A DNA stretch of 64,000 bases from Pseudomonadota bacterium (GTDB lineage Archaea > Thermoplasmatota > SW-10-69-26 > JACQPN01 > JAJPHT01), in assembly GCA_021325135.1 (NCBI GenBank), contig JAJPHT010000020.1:64001-128000 (forward strand), in the 5' to 3' direction. The position numbers were made by a program, and so were the translations under genes. The notes below the pieces were generated by a model, which was given only the letters and a program-made list of their open reading frames with translations, had not been told where the DNA came from and searched no databases. Of the stretch, positions 56,615 through 64,000 are shown piece by piece; position 1 is the stretch's first letter, and every line of letters starts with the position of its first letter.

Positions 56615-58360
56615 TTACCGATCAAGCGTCCCCGGCGTGTAGTACGGGTTGGAGGCCGCGATGGCCTTCGTGTCCACGCCTGCGGGCGCGCCCGCGGGGA
56701 GCAGCGGCAGCGTGAGGGCGCTCTTCGCCAGGTCCAGGGTGAGCGCGGGCTCGTTGCCGTTGGCGTTGTACCACGAGGCGTCCTCGCCGAGGACCACCAG
56801 CGCGATGCGCTCGCCCTTGTGGAACACGGCCTCGGAGGGGTAGAGGTCCACGGGGACCGTCATGGCCTCGCCGGGGGCGACCGCGTCGCTCTGCGCGCGC
56901 CCGTTGCGCTGCTCCAGGCCGCGGCCGCCCTCGTCCACCCACCACCAGGCGCCCTTGTCGGTGACGTTGTAGAGCTGGACCACGACGTGCCCGTCGCCGG
57001 GCCGGTCCGCCGAGAGGCCCAGCACGAGGCGCGGCATGCCCGCGACGCGGACGTCCTGCGCCAGGGGCTCGCTCACGAACGTCGCGCTGGGCTGCGCGGG
57101 CGAGGCCGCGAGGGCGCCCTCCACCGGGAGCCCCAGGCCGTTGGTGGGCATGGCGTAGACGGTGACCGAGCCCGAGCCGGGCGCGTCCTGGAGCTTGCCC
57201 GGGGCGAGGTGGAGCGTGAGGTTCGTCGTCCCGCGAGGGGGCCAGTCCGTCTCGTTGCGCCAGCGCCCGTCGGTGTCCTGCACCTGGACGGCGGGCAGCG
57301 AGCCGGGGATGCCGTTGGCCTTGCCGTCGAGGTAGTGGTCGAACCACGCGACGATGGTGCTGTTCCAGTCGGGGCGGCTCCAGTCCTTGTTGTGGGTGTT
57401 GGACCACGGGATGTTGTGCTCCCACTGGCCCCACCACTGCATCTTCTCGCCGGGGATGAGGTCGAGGACCGCGCCGTTGTCGGGCTTCACGTTCCAGTCG
57501 GCGAGGCCGTGGACGAGGAAGACGCTGGCGTTGATCTTCGAGAACTTCGCGCTGAGGTTGCGCTCCTGCCAGAACGAGTCGTAGACGCCCTTCTCCGTGG
57601 TCGTGAGCGACTCCGCGAGGTGCGTGGCCTCCAGCGCGCAGACGTGCGTGGGGTCGACGACGGGCGCCTGCTGCTCGAGGAGGGGGTCGTAGCCGAAGCT
57701 CTCGTCCACCCAGTAGCGCGGGTAGAACGTCGGCCCCTGGAGGTAGTAGGGGGCTCCGTCCTGGTACTCGTAGCGGTAGAAGTCGGAGATGCCCTCGATG
57801 GGCACGATGGTCTTGAGGTGCTTGGGGGCTCCGATGGCGACCTCCCAGGGCGTCGTGCCGTCGTAGGAGACGCCCATGACGCCCACGTTGCCGTTGCTCC
57901 AGGGCTGCTCGCCGATCCAGTCGACGAACTCGGCCAATTCGCGCTGCTCGTCCGCTCCTCCGATCTCGAAGCACCCGCTGCTGTCCCCCGTGCCGGGCAC
58001 GTTGGCGGCGACGTAGGCGAAGCCGTGCCCCAGCAGCATGCCGACGCCGAAGAAGTCGCCCGCGAAGCCGTAGAGGTCCCCCGTCCCGATGCCGTAGGAC
58101 TCGTGGAAGTAGGGGCTGATCTGCGCGACGACGCCGAAGCGCTCGCCGGGCTGCGGGTCGTGGGGCAGGTAGACCGTGCCGCGGACGTGCGTGCCGTCCT
58201 TGGCCGCGAAGTCCAGCGCCTTGAGCGCGGGCGTCACGTTGGCCGTGGGCAGCACCGGCGCCGCGACGCTGGCGGGCGACACGGTGCCGGCGGGGGCCTG
58301 GGAGACGCAGCCCGCGAGGGCGGCCGACGCAAGGAGGGCAGCGAGGACGATGGCTCTCAG
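56615..58360 (-). CDS. CocE/NonD (peptidase S15) family hydrolase lipoprotein; probable CTG start
   Basis: GTGDSSG, WSNGNVGVMGVSYDG, VHGLADWNV, GQWEH; lipobox ALAGC upstream of the ORF-track start. Confidence 0.9.
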   Translation of the reverse strand: MRAIVLAALLASAALAGCVSQAPAGTVSPASVAAPVLPTANVTPALKALDFAAKDGTHVRGTVYLPHDPQPGERFGVVAQISPYFHESYGIGTGDLYGFAGDFFGVGMLLGHGFAYVAANVPGTGDSSGCFEIGGADEQRELAEFVDWIGEQPWSNGNVGVMGVSYDGTTPWEVAIGAPKHLKTIVPIEGISDFYRYEYQDGAPYYLQGPTFYPRYWVDESFGYDPLLEQQAPVVDPTHVCALEATHLAESLTTTEKGVYDSFWQERNLSAKFSKINASVFLVHGLADWNVKPDNGAVLDLIPGEKMQWWGQWEHNIPWSNTHNKDWSRPDWNSTIVAWFDHYLDGKANGIPGSLPAVQVQDTDGRWRNETDWPPRGTTNLTLHLAPGKLQDAPGSGSVTVYAMPTNGLGLPVEGALAASPAQPSATFVSEPLAQDVRVAGMPRLVLGLSADRPGDGHVVVQLYNVTDKGAWWWVDEGGRGLEQRNGRAQSDAVAPGEAMTVPVDLYPSEAVFHKGERIALVVLGEDASWYNANGNEPALTLDLAKSALTLPLLPAGAPAGVDTKAIAASNPYYTPGTLDR

Positions 58361-58657
58361 GGAGAAGCCTCCGAGGCGCGAGCGGCCCCCGGGGGGCTTA
58401 ACGATTTGCGCGCCAGCCTTGACCGATACGAGCCGCCGGGGGGCGATCCAGGCGGGGATTTTTCTCGTGTGGAGCCTGAGCTAGGGTTCTCCCGGGAATG
58501 CCGCTCCCCGCCGCCCGCCGCAGGGCCCCCCACGCGGGAGCGCCAGCGACCCGGATCCGCTTGGCCGGGCTCCGCAAGGCCGGCGGGAACCCGCACGCGG
58601 CGTCCCGAAAAGGGATTTAGCCTGCGGCGCGGGTCCGTGCGGCCGGGAGGCGCGCCC

Positions 58658-59083
58658 TTGCGCACGCTGGCAGTCCTCGTCGTCCTCGTCTTCCTTGGCG
58701 TCCCCGCGCTGGCGGCTGCGCCCTCCGGCTGCGTGCCCCAGTGCGAGGTGCCCAGCGCGGAGAGCGGCTACGTCCCGCCCGCGACCGTCGTGCCCTCGGG
58801 CTCCAACGTGACGTGGTCCTCGCTGGACCGCGCGCACACGGCCACCGAGCCGGGCGTCCCGGCGTCGCAGGCGTGCGTGAACGTCCTCTACGGCCCCGCG
58901 CCCGGCCACGCCCGGTTCGCCATCCACAACGGATCGCTCTGGGCGCAGCAGCCCCTTCAATTGGAGAAGCGCTGCTCCACCGCGAGCCTCCAGCGCGACG
59001 GCTCGTGGCTCCTGGAATACCACTGCCTCTACCACTCGCAGATGGTCGGCTTCCTCCTCGTCCGCCCCGAGGCCTCCCCATGA
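58658..59083 (+). CDS. Secreted type-1 (blue) copper cupredoxin
   Basis: GGAGG SD + TTG; signal peptide; VTW...HTAT...YHCLYHSQMVG (His/Cys/His/Met). Confidence 0.85.
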   Translation: MRTLAVLVVLVFLGVPALAAAPSGCVPQCEVPSAESGYVPPATVVPSGSNVTWSSLDRAHTATEPGVPASQACVNVLYGPAPGHARFAIHNGSLWAQQPLQLEKRCSTASLQRDGSWLLEYHCLYHSQMVGFLLVRPEASP

Positions 59084-60333
59084 CCCGCGCCCTCCTCGCC
59101 CTCGCCGCCGCGCTGCTCCTCCTGCCCCTGGGCCTCCACGCCTCGGCCGCCGGGCCGCGCACGCTCACCGTGTCGCCCACGGGGGATTACCACACCATCC
59201 AGGCTGCGGTGGATGCGGCGAGCCCGGGGGACACGGTGCTCGTGGCGCCGGGCGTGTACCAGGAGGCGGTGTCGGTCTCGACGCCGGACGTCACCATCCG
59301 CGGCGAGGACCGCGAGGGCGTCGTGCTCGACGGGGGCGAGGCGCTGGGCAATGCGTTCACCGTGACTGCGGACGGCGTGACGCTGGCGAGCATGACGGCG
59401 CAGCACTACGCCAGCAACGGCTTCGTGTTCACCCGCGTCGATGGCTGCCGCTTCGACGACCTGCACGCCAAGGACAACGGCGAGTACGGCCTCTACGCGG
59501 TGCACTCGCGCCACTGCGTCATGGAGAACAGCCTCGCGGAGGGGCACGGCGACTCGGGCTTCTACCTGGGCGAGACGGTGGACTGCGACTGCGACGTGCA
59601 GGACAACGTGGGCTGGAACAACATGCTGGGCTACTCGGGCACGGCCAACTCCCACATCCGCATCCACGGCAACGACTTCTTCTGGAACCGCGCGGGCATC
59701 CTGCTTTCCGTGCTGCCCGACGAGATGGGCGCGGACGTCTGCCCCGACCCCGCGGGCGGGTCCCCCGCTCCCGGCGACGCGTGCCCCGGCGTCACGCCCT
59801 ACGGCCTCCAGACGCGCACGGAGGTCTACGGCAACCACGTGCACGACAACAACAACCACACCCGCGCGACGGGCCTCTTCGCGACGGTCCACCCGCCGGT
59901 GGGCGAGGGCATCGTCATCTCCGGCGGCTGGAACGACGACGTGCACGACAACCTCGTCGAGGACAACCACCTCTGGGGCGTCGGCATCTTCTGGCTCACG
60001 ACGCCGCCCCGCGGCAACTTCGTCCACGACAACCAGATCAGCGGCGGCCGGTACGGCATCTGGTGGGACGAGCAGGGCGAGGACCACTGCTTCGCCAACA
60101 ACGCCATCACCGACGTCCGCGTCGCCAGCGACCCGGCGGTCCTCCCCTCGTGCCCGGGCCCCGCGGGCGATCTGCCCTGCCCCGCCGCGCTCTCAGATTA
60201 CGCCGCGTGCCGCGCCAACGACGCGCGGGCGCCCTCGGCGGCCAAGGACGCGGGCCTCGCATGGCGCTCGTACTGGGACCTCGACCCGTCGCAGGACGCG
60301 CCCGCGACGAAGCCCACCGGGGACGGTGCGTAG
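59080..60333 (+). CDS. Secreted right-handed parallel beta-helix protein (NosD-like)
   Basis: TIQAAVDAASPGDTVLVAPGVY, DNGEYGLY, DSGFYLG, Asn ladders; ATGA overlap. Confidence 0.85.
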   Translation: MTRALLALAAALLLLPLGLHASAAGPRTLTVSPTGDYHTIQAAVDAASPGDTVLVAPGVYQEAVSVSTPDVTIRGEDREGVVLDGGEALGNAFTVTADGVTLASMTAQHYASNGFVFTRVDGCRFDDLHAKDNGEYGLYAVHSRHCVMENSLAEGHGDSGFYLGETVDCDCDVQDNVGWNNMLGYSGTANSHIRIHGNDFFWNRAGILLSVLPDEMGADVCPDPAGGSPAPGDACPGVTPYGLQTRTEVYGNHVHDNNNHTRATGLFATVHPPVGEGIVISGGWNDDVHDNLVEDNHLWGVGIFWLTTPPRGNFVHDNQISGGRYGIWWDEQGEDHCFANNAITDVRVASDPAVLPSCPGPAGDLPCPAALSDYAACRANDARAPSAAKDAGLAWRSYWDLDPSQDAPATKPTGDGA

Positions 60334-60336
60334 GCC

Positions 60337-61176
60337 ATGCGCTCGCGGTGGGTCCTCGGCGCGCTGGCGCTCCTCCTTCTGGCCTCCTCCAGCGGGCTCT
60401 CCGCGCCGCCCGCGCCGCCGCAGGCGCGCAGCTTCACGCTGGAGGCGACCGCAGTGCCCTGCCCCGCGGGCCGCGACCCCTACGGCGACGGCATCTGCCT
60501 CGCCTACAACGGCCAGATCCCCGGCCCCACGCTTGATATCAATCTCCTGGACAACGTGACGCTGACGCTCGTCAACCACGTCCCGCAGACGGTGTGGAGC
60601 CTGCCGCCGGGGCACGACGACGTGAAGGCGCGCCTCGCGGCGTCGGGCGTCAGCTTCCACCTGCACGGCACGGCGCTCTCGGTGAAGGAGGACGGGCTCT
60701 CCTCCGCCATGGGGGCGACGTTCTTCGACTCCTACGCGCCGCCCAACGGCTCGTTCACCTACCACTTCCGCGCGGTCTACAACGGCACCTGGCAGTACCA
60801 CGACCACGTGCTGGGCCTCGACGGCATGGAGGGCGACGCGCGCGGCCTCGCGGGCACGCTGGCGATCCGCTCGGGGGGCGAGGTGCGCCCTGACGCCATC
60901 GTGGACGTGCACGCCATGGACGCGGGCCCCTTTGTCCTCCAGAACGGCACGGTCCACCCGGGCGGCAGCTTCGAGCTTCTTGAGACGGTCCTGGGCGACT
61001 GGACGTGGACGTTCACGCTCACGGACCCCGCGGGCGCCGTGGTGCGCACCCTGGATCTGGGCCCCGGGCAGGCGGAGCACGTCGTCGTCACGGGCGCCGC
61101 GGCGGGAAGCTATCGCTGGAGCGTCTCCGACGACATCCGCGGCGACGCGTACCACGGGACGGTGGTCGTCCAATGA
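60337..61176 (+). CDS. Secreted multicopper-oxidase N-domain protein (SLAC domain-1-like)
   Basis: Signal peptide; YNGQIPGPTL, SFHLHG, GTWQYHDH, GLAGTLAI. Confidence 0.85.
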   Translation: MRSRWVLGALALLLLASSSGLSAPPAPPQARSFTLEATAVPCPAGRDPYGDGICLAYNGQIPGPTLDINLLDNVTLTLVNHVPQTVWSLPPGHDDVKARLAASGVSFHLHGTALSVKEDGLSSAMGATFFDSYAPPNGSFTYHFRAVYNGTWQYHDHVLGLDGMEGDARGLAGTLAIRSGGEVRPDAIVDVHAMDAGPFVLQNGTVHPGGSFELLETVLGDWTWTFTLTDPAGAVVRTLDLGPGQAEHVVVTGAAAGSYRWSVSDDIRGDAYHGTVVVQ

Positions 61177-61961
61177 AGGCCAGCGTCGTGATCGCGGCCC
61201 TGCTCCTGGCGCCCGCTCTCGCAGCGCCCGCCGTGGGGCAGTTCCCCATGCAGGTCCCGGGCACCGACGTCTACCTCGACGGCGCGCCCGACCGCGTGTT
61301 CGACCTGGTCATGCAGGGGCACACCATCAACCTCCAGGGCTACCCGGGCGACGGACTGCCCGCGGGCGCCGGCCTCGTGCTGGAGGCGTACCTGGGGGAC
61401 CGCGTGCAGTTCACCGTCGCCGTGCCCGCCACCGCGGAGCCGCACACCTTCCACCTGCACGGGCACCCGTGGTTCGCGCCCACCGTGGGCCGCATGGTGG
61501 ACACCTGGCTCCTGCACCCCGGCGACGTGCACTCCTTCAGCGTCGTCGCGGGCGGCATCGACGGCAACGCCGGCGACTGGATGTTCCACTGCCACCTCGC
61601 CACGCACGCGGCCTCCGGCATGTGGGGCATCTTCCGCGTCTACCCGTACCGCTCGGTGATCCCGCCCATCCTGCCCGGGCCGCAGCGCGGCGGCGCCTTC
61701 GACGTGCATCTGGACCGCCTGGGCGTCCCCGTGGACGGAGCGCACCTCATGGTGCAAGTGGACGGCAAGCCGCTCCCCGCGCAGGTGACGCCCCTGGGCG
61801 GCGGCGCGTACCGCGTGGGCGCGGACCTCCCCGCGACGGGCGTCCTCGTCGTCACGGCGCACCACCCCGACCTGGGCGTCAGCGTCGCGCGCGTGGGCCT
61901 GGGCGGGACGCCCGTGCCGCCCCTCACCGCGCAGATGGACGCCATGGCGCACGCCGCGTGA
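61173..61961 (+). CDS. Secreted multicopper-oxidase C-domain protein (SLAC domain-2-like, T1 site)
   Basis: Own signal peptide; HTFHLHGHPW and WMFHCHLATHAASGM. Confidence 0.88.
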   Translation: MKASVVIAALLLAPALAAPAVGQFPMQVPGTDVYLDGAPDRVFDLVMQGHTINLQGYPGDGLPAGAGLVLEAYLGDRVQFTVAVPATAEPHTFHLHGHPWFAPTVGRMVDTWLLHPGDVHSFSVVAGGIDGNAGDWMFHCHLATHAASGMWGIFRVYPYRSVIPPILPGPQRGGAFDVHLDRLGVPVDGAHLMVQVDGKPLPAQVTPLGGGAYRVGADLPATGVLVVTAHHPDLGVSVARVGLGGTPVPPLTAQMDAMAHAA

Positions 61962-62189: not shown

Positions 62190-63287
62190 TCAGCGCCGCG
62201 CCGTGAGCCAGGCCTCGGCGCGCTCGCCCGCGTAGCGCGTGGGGTCGCGGTTCACGAACTCCACCATGGGGCCGAGGCGCTCCGCCATGGCGTTGGCGGC
62301 CAGGAAGCCGACGCCGCCCGCGAGGACGGCCCACGGGATGGTGGCCCAGTCCAGGGGCACGGTGAAGACGAGGCGCGGCGCGAGGGCCCAGTAGGCGTAG
62401 GAGCCGCCCACGGCCAGCGCGAGGGTGACGAGGAGGCGCTGCGCGGAGCCTTCGGCCACGATCCAGGCGACCTCCACCGCGGCGCCGATGGCGACGACGT
62501 GCCAGGGGACCGCGCTGATGGGCCAGCCGGTGGCGGCGAGCACCGCGTTGGCGGCGAAGCGCTCCACCGCGAAGGCGGCGAGCACGCCCAGGGCGACGCC
62601 GCGGACGCCGGTCACCTGGCGCACCAGCACGGCGAAGAGGATGCCGATGGCCAGGGCGTAGGCCGGGTAGAGCACGTGGGGCAGGCCGCCGTAGTACGGG
62701 TCCTTCACCATGTCCGCGTAGCCCTGGATCTCCAAGCCCACGACGTAGAGGCTGTTGCCGTGGAAGTGGTTCCACGCGCCCACGACGGTGTACTCGTTGT
62801 AGCCCAGGGGGAAGGCCAGGGCCTCGAAGAGGAAGAGGAGGAGCAGCCCGAAGACGCCCCACCGGGCGGGGGTGAGGCGCGCCTCGCGGACGCGCGTGCC
62901 GGGGCGCCAGCCGGCCTCTGCCAGGAAGAGGAGGACGATGCCCGCCACGGTGATGGTGGTGCCGTAGAAGAGCATGAGGTGGCTGGGGCTCCACGTGGTG
63001 AGGTCCAGCCCGAAGATCTGGTGCCACGCCTGGTCGAAGGGGATGGCCGCCAGGAAGACGGCGAAGCCCGCCAGGATGACGTTGAGCGCGGGCTGCGTTG
63101 CCTCGGTGCGCGCGCGCCACGAGAGGAGCAGCGCCACGGAGATGAGGACGAAGCCCACCATGTTGACGACGTGGGGGGGCGAGATGGTCTCGCGCAGGAG
63201 GCGGAAGTGCCAGGAGACGTCCCAGGCGGAGCTGACCAGCTTCAGGGCGAGCCCGGCGATCCAGAGCGTCCAGACGGTGCGGCGCAT
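62190..63287 (-). CDS. Polytopic membrane protein with two PmoC/AmoC-like D-x-x-W-H...P-x-H motifs
   Basis: WDVSWHFRLLRETISPPH and FDQAWHQIFGLDLTTWSPSHLMLFY; ~10 TM helices; GGAGG SD (alternative start 63323). Confidence 0.8.
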   Translation of the reverse strand: MRRTVWTLWIAGLALKLVSSAWDVSWHFRLLRETISPPHVVNMVGFVLISVALLLSWRARTEATQPALNVILAGFAVFLAAIPFDQAWHQIFGLDLTTWSPSHLMLFYGTTITVAGIVLLFLAEAGWRPGTRVREARLTPARWGVFGLLLLFLFEALAFPLGYNEYTVVGAWNHFHGNSLYVVGLEIQGYADMVKDPYYGGLPHVLYPAYALAIGILFAVLVRQVTGVRGVALGVLAAFAVERFAANAVLAATGWPISAVPWHVVAIGAAVEVAWIVAEGSAQRLLVTLALAVGGSYAYWALAPRLVFTVPLDWATIPWAVLAGGVGFLAANAMAERLGPMVEFVNRDPTRYAGERAEAWLTARR

Positions 63288-63431
63288 CGAGGCCCTCCGG
63301 CGGCGTTCGAGGGCCGCGGCCATACTTAACCTCGCCCCCGCCGACGTCCCGGCAAGAAGGGGAAAAGCTCAAACGCGCCGCCGCGGGCCGCAAAGGAGAT
63401 AGCGCGCCCCCGGGCTCGCCCGTTGCCACCC

Positions 63432-64000
63432 ATGCCCCCGCTGCTCGTCGTGCTGGCCCTCTTCCTGGTCGCCGTGATCGGGGGCGCGCAGAACGCCGTG
63501 GCGGGCGGAGGGAGCTTCTTCACGTTTCCCACGCTCCTCTTCGCGGGCGTCGGCTCCATCTCCGCCAACGCCACCAGCACCGTGGCGCTCTGGCCCGGCA
63601 GCGTCGCCAGCGCGGTGGCCTTCCGCGGCGAGCTGCGCCACGAGCGGCGCCTCTTCCTTGTCCTGGGCGCGGCCAGCCTCGCGGGCGGCCTCGCGGGCGC
63701 CCTGCTCCTGCTCCACACGCCGCAGCGCGCCTTCGACGCCCTGATCCCGTGGCTGCTCCTGGCGGCGACGCTCGTCTTCGCCTTCGGGCCCCTGGTCACG
63801 CGGCGCCTCCGCGGCCACGCGCGCCCCTCGAGGTCCCTGTGGCCCTTCGCCCTCGTGCAGCTCGTCGTCGCGGTGTACGGCGGCTACTTCGGCGGCGGCA
63901 TCGGGATCATGATGCTCGCGGCGTTCAGCGCCATGGGCATGGAGGACCTCCACGCCATGAACGGCCTCAAGGCCGTGCTGGGCGCGCTGATCAACGGCGT
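63432..64000 (+). CDS. TauE/SafE family exporter, truncated at window end
   Basis: NAVAGGGSFFTFPTL, ANATSTVALWPGS, YGGYFGGGIGIMML, MNGLK. Confidence 0.9.
   Translation, partial: MPPLLVVLALFLVAVIGGAQNAVAGGGSFFTFPTLLFAGVGSISANATSTVALWPGSVASAVAFRGELRHERRLFLVLGAASLAGGLAGALLLLHTPQRAFDALIPWLLLAATLVFAFGPLVTRRLRGHARPSRSLWPFALVQLVVAVYGGYFGGGIGIMMLAAFSAMGMEDLHAMNGLKAVLGALING

Follow-up and report, generated by a model that had tools for sequence, protein, structure and literature searches.

The DNA analysed here, called the window below, is a stretch of 64,000 nucleotides (positions 64,001 to 128,000 of contig JAJPHT010000020.1, forward strand) from assembly GCA_021325135.1, which comprises 3.77 Mb and is 94% complete. 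The closest named records are "Thermoplasmata archaeon" metagenome-assembled genomes (MAGs) from soil. Towards the end of the window two genes, named A and B here, follow each other on the same strand and code for secreted-looking proteins, each with a different part of the copper ligands of a multicopper oxidase. We propose that A and B are probably two subunits of one secreted multicopper oxidase, neither chain being sufficient, and that they most likely associate as a 1:1 heterodimer.

Two adjacent genes with complementary copper ligands

The two genes and their parts are as follows (window coordinates; aa, amino acids; D1 to D3, first to third oxidase domain; Ig, immunoglobulin):

60337-61176, + strand: gene A, putative oxidase subunit of 279 aa, composed of D1 with four trinuclear-cluster histidines and a copper-free second domain
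60337-60411, + strand: signal peptide of A, residues 1-25, Sec-type in appearance
60418-60882, + strand: domain 1 of A, residues 28-182, cupredoxin, Cu-oxidase_3
60658-60669, + strand: HLHG (His108, His110), first of A's two HxH motifs for the trinuclear cluster, unchanged in all 18 sequences
60688-60696, + strand: E-D119-G120, the "DG" after the first HxH, Asp119-Gly120 invariant in the alignment
60796-60807, + strand: YHDH (His155, His157), second HxH of the trinuclear cluster, invariant
60883-61173, + strand: second domain of A (reduced D2 below), residues 183-279, small beta-sandwich without copper ligands, in the position of D2 in two- and three-domain oxidases
61173-61176, + strand: ATGA, start of B overlapping the stop of A, suggestive of translational coupling
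61173-61961, + strand: gene B, putative oxidase subunit of 262 aa, composed of a D3-type cupredoxin (type-1 site and four cluster histidines), an Ig-like domain and a Met/His tail
61173-61241, + strand: signal peptide of B, residues 1-23
61269-61658, + strand: cupredoxin domain of B, residues 33-162, equivalent of small-laccase domain 2
61443-61466, + strand: HTFHLHGH, with His91 (type-1 ligand), His94 and His96 (cluster ligands) and His98, invariant in 33 of 33 sequences
61587-61622, + strand: HCHLATHAASGM, with His139 and His141 (cluster) and Cys140, His145 and Met150 (type-1 site), invariant
61686-61907, + strand: Ig-like beta-sandwich of B, residues 172-245 (model strands 175-243, pLDDT about 97)
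61923-61958, + strand: Met/His-rich C-terminal tail of B (…QMDAMAHAA); homologues end in HAH, HGH or an AMxM-type sequence

Protein A contains HLHG (residues 108-111) and YHDH (residues 154-157), no cysteine ligand and no further histidine motif, while protein B contains HTFHLHGH (residues 91-98) and HCHLATHAASGM (residues 139-150). Both open reading frames (ORFs) and this division of motifs are exactly those reported in the initial annotation of the window, which had described a two-domain small laccase split into two independently secreted polypeptides. The full ligand set of multicopper oxidases (HxH, HxH, HxxHxH and HCHxxxHxxxxM) is found only in A and B jointly and in neither chain alone. 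In Pfam, A matches Cu-oxidase_3 (1.7e-12, 47.9 bits, cut-off 21) and B matches Cu-oxidase_2 (8.2e-12, 45.5 bits, cut-off 20.4). Each chain begins with a hydrophobic, signal-like segment, predicted as a helix at residues 2-20 of A and 3-16 of B, and no twin-arginine motif is conserved across the alignments of A and B homologues.

Predicted fold of protein A

Residues 25-279 of the predicted model of A, with a predicted local distance difference test score (pLDDT) of 89.7, superpose on an entire small-laccase chain (8aip, residues 43-305; Z 21.4, root mean square deviation (rmsd) 2.3 Å over 209 residues). According to this model, A has the two-domain fold in full, with a second domain that is shrunken to about 95 aa and has lost all copper ligands. 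The "ligand-free beta-domain" of the initial annotation is thus indeed free of ligands; it is not a mere beta-domain, being instead a reduced cupredoxin-type domain in the D2 position of small laccases. The same whole-chain superposition led us to reject the idea that A represents a single-domain half. The proposal of a hetero-oligomeric oxidase retains its basis in the complementary ligands, and its other part, in which the two chains were halves of a small laccase resembling a single-domain ancestor, falls, A alone spanning the whole two-domain fold. Because the copper-free domain of A occupies the D2 position, the arrangement points to descent from a complete two-domain protein and not to a primordial state.

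The fold of A was also searched against 48,161 representative chains, independently of Foldseek. NirK-type and type-C two-domain enzymes scored Z 16-18, and the D1-D2 parts of three-domain oxidases Z 13-15.6 (207-222 residues, rmsd 3.0-3.9 Å), among them McoG (Z 15.6, chain residues 29-330), maize laccase (Z 15.1), ascorbate oxidase (Z 14.7, chain residues 1-299), and Fet3p and CueO-type enzymes (Z 13-13.7); the D1-D2 arrangement that A matches also occurs within two-domain oxidases. Taken alone, the reduced D2 resembles small cupredoxin-like domains, such as the N-domain of EfeO (Z 9.0) and FtrB (Z 8.4). By sequence, CotA D1 scores nearly as high against A (1.6e-7) as the small laccases do, phmmer aligns only the start of the reduced D2 to small-laccase D2, and weak Cupredoxin_1 matches appear for the second domain in relatives of A.

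Two residues outside the cluster motifs deserve mention. Going by the L1 signature, Asp119 would correspond to the second-sphere carboxylate known from multicopper oxidases. Within the reduced D2, His192 belongs to the first strand (DVHAMD, residues 190-195, 60904-60921); it is invariant in all A-type and fused proteins and aligns with the histidine of the small-laccase "THTI" strand. In the Streptomyces griseoflavus enzyme, whose His165 mutants are among the PDB matches of A, that histidine acts as the gate of the channel leading to the type-3 coppers.

Protein B and its C-terminal extensions

In the predicted model of B (pLDDT 88.3), residues 33-159 fit small-laccase domain 2 with Z 16, rmsd 1.6-1.7 Å and 36-40% identity. 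A phmmer search of B against the PDB gave Ssl1 at 3e-15 and, as the best match, MnxG at 6e-20, with three MnxG domains matched; in NCBIfam, B matches copper_ox_MnxG (1.8e-12). The only other match of B in its own genome is weak (E 4e-5; G000:C46:212818-213030) and lies inside a 628-aa open frame, possibly another multicopper oxidase.

The Ig-like tail that had been read from the sequence of B appears in the confident part of the model as a sandwich at residues 172-245, and weak Big_1 and Filamin matches are found in relative P0112. Two short B forms, P0081 (160 aa) and P0087 (161 aa), have no Ig-like domain and keep a His-rich C-terminus, which indicates that the Ig-like domain is dispensable for the core function. 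The Met/His tail is conserved at the extreme C-terminus of the B family, even in these short forms. It folds back in the model, at low pLDDT, onto the cupredoxin where the C-terminal tail of small laccases lies. The tail may have a role in copper capture or delivery and recalls cuprous oxidases.

Conservation of the split arrangement

In the databases searched, A has about 19 homologues of its type (257-286 aa) and B about 66 (160-282 aa). Many of the A-type and B-type proteins are from contigs of equal length, among them an A/B pair in NCBI that carries consecutive locus tags. In alignments of 18 A-type and 33 B-type homologues, all eight cluster histidines, the type-1 ligands His91, Cys140, His145 and Met150, the pair Asp119-Gly120 and His192 are invariant. 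The A/B family is present in 11 of the 401 genomes of the phylum that were searched. Ten of these, from three families, hold the split locus, with A directly followed by B on the same strand in every case, the present one included. One genome (G118) has fused copies in addition to its split locus, and the eleventh (G348) has a fused copy only. Identity of the genome-locus relatives to the present A and B falls to 31-40%. At each of the nine other loci B has its own hydrophobic, signal-like N-terminus, and its start overlaps or abuts the stop of A. Split orthologues, for which the initial annotation had suggested a search, thus exist as adjacent A-then-B pairs, and its statement that the two chains have separate signal peptides, not to be explained by a frameshift, agrees with these loci.

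Fused relatives and the direction of change

Four relatives carry an A-like part followed by a B-like part in a single frame, without an internal signal peptide:

P0111: 531 aa, N-terminal part 33% identical to A, C-terminal part 40% identical to B, own genome G348 (G348:C138)
P0112: 614 aa, N-terminal part 35% identical to A, C-terminal part 34% identical to B
G118:C177 and G118:C130: two further fused copies, in genome G118

The first two were found by an exhaustive search with A and match Cu-oxidase_3 and then Cu-oxidase_2. With B as the query, the longer proteins retrieved were only giant MnxG-like proteins of 1424-1828 aa and no A/B fusions. At the site of the split B's signal peptide the fusions have a hydrophilic, partly His-rich linker. 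In genome G118 the system is present three times, twice as a fused gene and once as a split pair accompanied by cupredoxin and NosD-like genes, so split and fused forms coexist in one organism.

Trees were built separately for the A part and for the cupredoxin of B and rooted on five complete two-domain oxidases; they are quick searches with support from the Shimodaira-Hasegawa-like approximate likelihood ratio test (SH-aLRT) only, and the split state of proteins known solely from databases was judged by length. The two trees agree, and in both the fusions form one clade (SH-aLRT 93 for the A part, 99 for the B part), nested deep within the split forms, where the split pairs of G093 and G118 are its neighbours; this amounts to one change of state. 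Because the fused clade is nested in this way, the split state is the older one within the A/B family and the fused state a derived one. The merging of two neighbouring genes counts as classical evidence for an interaction between their products, here with an implied stoichiometry of 1:1.

In all four fusions the type-1 loop is two residues shorter and the second type-1 histidine is absent (HCHINAD.., HCHMNHDV.., HCHIGLDV..), with the cysteine, the HCH pair and the Met-Trp retained. The blue copper site of the fused relatives may therefore be altered or lost.

A duplicated two-domain oxidase whose copies suffered complementary losses is the probable origin of the A/B family, and in one sub-lineage the two genes were fused afterwards. 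In such a scheme one small-laccase-type copy would have kept D1 and degraded D2, and the other would have kept D2 only. Further, we put forward tentatively, at somewhat less than an even chance, that the family is a living stepwise route from trimeric two-domain to monomeric three-domain oxidases, leading through duplication, complementary loss and an obligate heterodimer to fusion into a D1, reduced D2, D3 chain, and that it represents an independent re-invention of the laccase architecture.

Neighbouring genes

Genes A and B are the last two of four same-strand genes packed head to tail. The features that precede them are:

58608-58622, + strand: AT-rich box GAAAAGGGATTTAGC, about 40 nucleotides upstream of the first gene of the cluster
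58658-59083, + strand: small secreted cupredoxin-like protein, 141 aa, start codon TTG at 58658
59080-60333, + strand: secreted right-handed beta-helix protein, NosD-like, 417 aa

The stop of the cupredoxin-like gene overlaps the start of the NosD-like gene, again in an ATGA. All four proteins have hydrophobic, signal-like N-termini, and the GC content at third codon positions (GC3) in the called frames is 94-97% for the four genes and 95-97% for A and B. The AT-rich box is the sole AT-rich stretch in a region of about 75% GC and is a possible archaeal promoter element.

The small cupredoxin has the pattern His...Cys-x2-His-x2-Met and no sequence match in Pfam, NCBIfam or the PDB. All its Atlas feature matches are plastocyanin/azurin-family clusters (0.86-0.89), to be taken as a lead only. 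The second protein matches Beta_helix (2.5e-12) and NosD (8.5e-11, 42 bits, above its own cut-off) in Pfam, and its PDB sequence matches are only weak ones to pectinesterase beta-helices. We call it NosD-like and not NosD, because it stays below the cut-off of NosD_copper_fam and no nosFYLZ genes occur among the ORFs of 57-64 kb. Both genes flank the A/B pair in six loci (the present one, G064, G052, G093, G113 and G118:C69), in varying order and orientation, by a comparison in which three contigs were either too short or informative in part only. In the maturation of N2O reductase, Cu(I) is taken up by the periplasmic beta-helix NosD, which delivers it to the enzyme (PMC13685413). By analogy, the NosD-like protein is a candidate copper-insertion helper of the A/B oxidase, and the co-encoded cupredoxin a candidate redox partner.

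Upstream of the copper cluster, in divergent orientation, lies a gene for a secreted-looking S15-family X-Pro dipeptidyl peptidase (56615-58282, - strand; Peptidase_S15 1.7e-47, PepX_C 9.6e-30). Downstream follow a membrane protein without a Pfam match (62190-63323, - strand) and a TauE-like permease (63423-63998, + strand). Genome G007, of the same genus, keeps both, about 2.6 kb from its A/B pair. We excluded these two downstream genes as members of the system, their synteny being confined to the genus and the other families having neither in the fetched regions.

Proposed mechanism

In the mechanism that we propose, A and B would be exported unfolded through their Sec-type signals and would fold, take up copper and assemble outside the cell. 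In the resulting AB unit the trinuclear cluster would lie at the interface between D1 of A and B, with A giving D1 with four of the eight cluster histidines, and B the other four, the type-1 (blue) copper and the Cys-His electron path. Electrons would enter at the type-1 copper of B, with its axial methionine, and pass through His139-Cys140-His141 to the cluster, where O2 would be reduced to water, Asp119 likely serving as the second-sphere acid, an assignment made from the oxidase signature. The cupredoxin, Cu(I) and another metal ion are candidate substrates, the substrate being the weakest part of the account.

What A and B probably form together

The family models of the Cu-oxidase type and the folds place A and B in the multicopper oxidase superfamily. 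Within it they fit neither of two known classes. A type-B enzyme is one two-domain chain with all ligands, whereas A has four of them and no type-1 site, and B is one cupredoxin domain with the other eight. A three-domain oxidase is one polypeptide, whereas two genes are found here and at nine other loci and a single chain only in the four derived fusions. Their ligands, four histidines in D1 of A, none in the reduced D2, and the type-1 site with four histidines in the cupredoxin of B, are nevertheless distributed as in three-domain oxidases. Judged by the models, A and B together are three cupredoxin-type domains plus an Ig-like domain, that is, a three-domain oxidase layout cut between D2 and D3 and made from parts that resemble those of small laccases.

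Given the ligands that each gene encodes, a heteromeric enzyme would be the only way to complete the trinuclear cluster, which a homotrimer of A or of B would leave incomplete. A joint enzyme is further supported by the N-terminal Pfam oxidase domain in A together with the C-terminal one in B, by the invariance of the complementary ligand sets, by the translational coupling of the genes and by their A-then-B adjacency at all ten split loci. We consider it highly probable that A and B share one active site, and we favour, with a good deal less assurance, a 1:1, three-domain-like arrangement.

Several points weigh against this picture. The closest solved relatives are homotrimers, which leaves room for a higher oligomer. 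The reduced D2 has no significant sequence similarity to cupredoxins (hhalign probability 3% against the cupredoxin of B and 1% against D1 of A), its assignment as a cupredoxin resting on predicted structure. The fused relatives, with their shortened type-1 loop, may not be functionally equivalent to the split pairs. The signal type was judged by eye. As to the accessory genes, the NosD-like protein falls below the curated NCBIfam cut-offs (beta_helix_1 1.7e-25; NosD_copper_fam 4.9e-16, 58 bits against 300), and genome G007 of the same genus has an A/B pair with neither a cupredoxin nor a NosD-like gene nearby.

The best surviving alternative, an unlikely one, is an A3B3 hetero-hexamer, the form considered in the initial annotation, built like the small-laccase trimer, in whose ring B would take the place of domain 2. 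In its favour, the nearest relatives of both chains, by sequence as well as by structure, are homotrimeric type-B two-domain laccases; in these, D1 of one chain and D2 of its neighbour hold the cluster between them (PMC13151041). On geometric grounds, an A3 ring of the small laccase (SLAC) type would cover the D1 cluster faces and leave no place for B, A already having a domain in the D2 position; B would reach the D1 cluster face only if A formed no such ring. The single-chain fusions, in turn, imply 1:1 stoichiometry and three-domain order, and their succession of D1, copper-free D2, D3 and Ig-like domain fits a 1:1, three-domain-like unit better than A3B3. They would still be compatible with three AB units associated in a new geometry.

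Slightly less probable again is that A and B share no active site. In that case B would act as a blue-copper electron carrier, or as a copper protein of one domain whose histidines are left over, and A would bind copper or have a structural role. The interaction of A and B is deduced indirectly, neither Atlas nor Pfam assigns a function, and soil Thermoplasmata are described (PMC9038741) as carrying many one-domain blue copper proteins whose role is unexplained. Against this stands the invariance of the eight cluster histidines, the His-Cys-His path and the second-sphere aspartate down to about 31-40% identity, which would be unexpected for vestigial residues. Moreover, the genes are adjacent in every locus found, the A and B trees agree, and the genes have been fused once.

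Finally, that a single gene was shifted in frame by an error of sequencing or assembly, or recently broke down into a pseudogene, is suggested by the one-base offset of the B frame from that of A at the junction and by the existence of fused relatives, and we reject it as extremely improbable, because split A-then-B loci with a signal-like start of B recur at nine other genome loci and on many metagenome contigs (31-75% identity), fused relatives have a hydrophilic linker in place of the signal peptide, and the GC3 of 95-97% with invariant ligands indicates that both frames are under selection.

We conclude that the A/B pair is real and conserved and is probably an obligate heteromeric multicopper oxidase.

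Novelty and significance

To our knowledge, all characterised multicopper oxidases have their cluster within one chain or between identical chains, and our search of the full-text literature found no oxidase with a cluster between different gene products. For soil Thermoplasmata, Diamond et al. (PMC9038741) catalogued numerous blue copper proteins of one or two domains, and the passages that a term search retrieved from their paper do not describe the split A/B arrangement. The split oxidase thus appears to be unpublished. New are the full two-domain fold of A, the three-domain ligand layout, the natural fusions, which are derived, and the conserved neighbourhood with cupredoxin and NosD-like genes.

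If our proposal is true, a cluster that needs two different gene products would be a new mode of assembly in a heavily studied and widely used class of enzymes. Unfolded export of the two chains, if it occurs, would mean that copper is loaded and the enzyme assembled outside the cell, which would give the NosD-like neighbour a testable role. A putative function would also be added for some of the many unexplained blue copper proteins of soil Thermoplasmata. The evolution of these oxidases has been put into a scheme by Nakamura and Go (2005), as relayed in PMC7036934. With split and fused forms in related archaea, and a tree direction from split to fusion, the long-proposed evolution from two- to three-domain oxidases becomes experimentally approachable, and should the stepwise route suggested above be true, the family would be a natural test bed for the origin of the laccase architecture.

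Comparison with known oxidases

Type-B two-domain oxidases (SLAC, 3CG8; Ssl1, 4M3H; the Streptomyces carpinensis enzyme, 8AIP; the Amycolatopsis enzyme, 3T9W) are the best sequence and structure matches of both chains, and the relationship to SLAC-type enzymes stated in the initial annotation is borne out in this sense. They share with A/B the motifs HTFH(L/M)HGH and HCHxxxHxxxxM, a type-1 site with axial methionine in a D2-type domain and, as we propose for A/B, a cluster built between two polypeptides. Type-B enzymes differ in being homotrimers of a chain that has all 12 ligands, whereas in A/B the ligands are divided over two gene products, the second domain of A is shrunken and copper-free, and B, which has no D1, is extended by an Ig-like domain and a Met/His tail. 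The type-B enzyme CjMCO has a Tat signal (PMC13151041), in contrast to the Sec-type appearance of the A and B signals.

MnxG of the Bacillus Mnx manganese oxidase complex (9BXA), the best PDB sequence match of B, is likewise a multicopper oxidase within a multi-protein complex. Unlike A/B, it is a six-domain single chain with its own complete cluster, and MnxE and MnxF, with which it is associated, are not known to be cupredoxin halves of the active site.

Nmar_1354, or MCO4, of ammonia-oxidising archaea (9CCK) is another secreted archaeal protein with three cupredoxin domains, and A matches its two-domain core with Z 17.6. Its pendant type-1 cupredoxin lies 13.5 Å from the enzyme's own type-1 copper and forms an electron relay (PMC11761707), a possible parallel to the free cupredoxin encoded upstream of A/B. 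The core of MCO4 is complete and trimeric and its third domain has no cluster ligands, whereas B would be indispensable for the cluster here.

Fungi have heterodimeric "novel laccases" (POXA3, PeNL plus a small subunit), laccase-like enzymes of two different polypeptides, as A/B would be; their small subunit is not an oxidase domain and has no copper ligand, the large subunit being a complete three-domain enzyme (PMC10443355).

Three-domain oxidases (laccases; ascorbate oxidase, 1AOZ; CotA, 1GSK; CueO; Fet3p, 1ZPU; McoG, 5LM8) have the same ligand distribution and domain order as A/B. They differ from it in being single chains with a full-size D2 of about 150 aa, as against about 95 aa for the reduced D2 of A, and B is closer to D2 of small laccases and to the domains of MnxG than to D3 of laccases.

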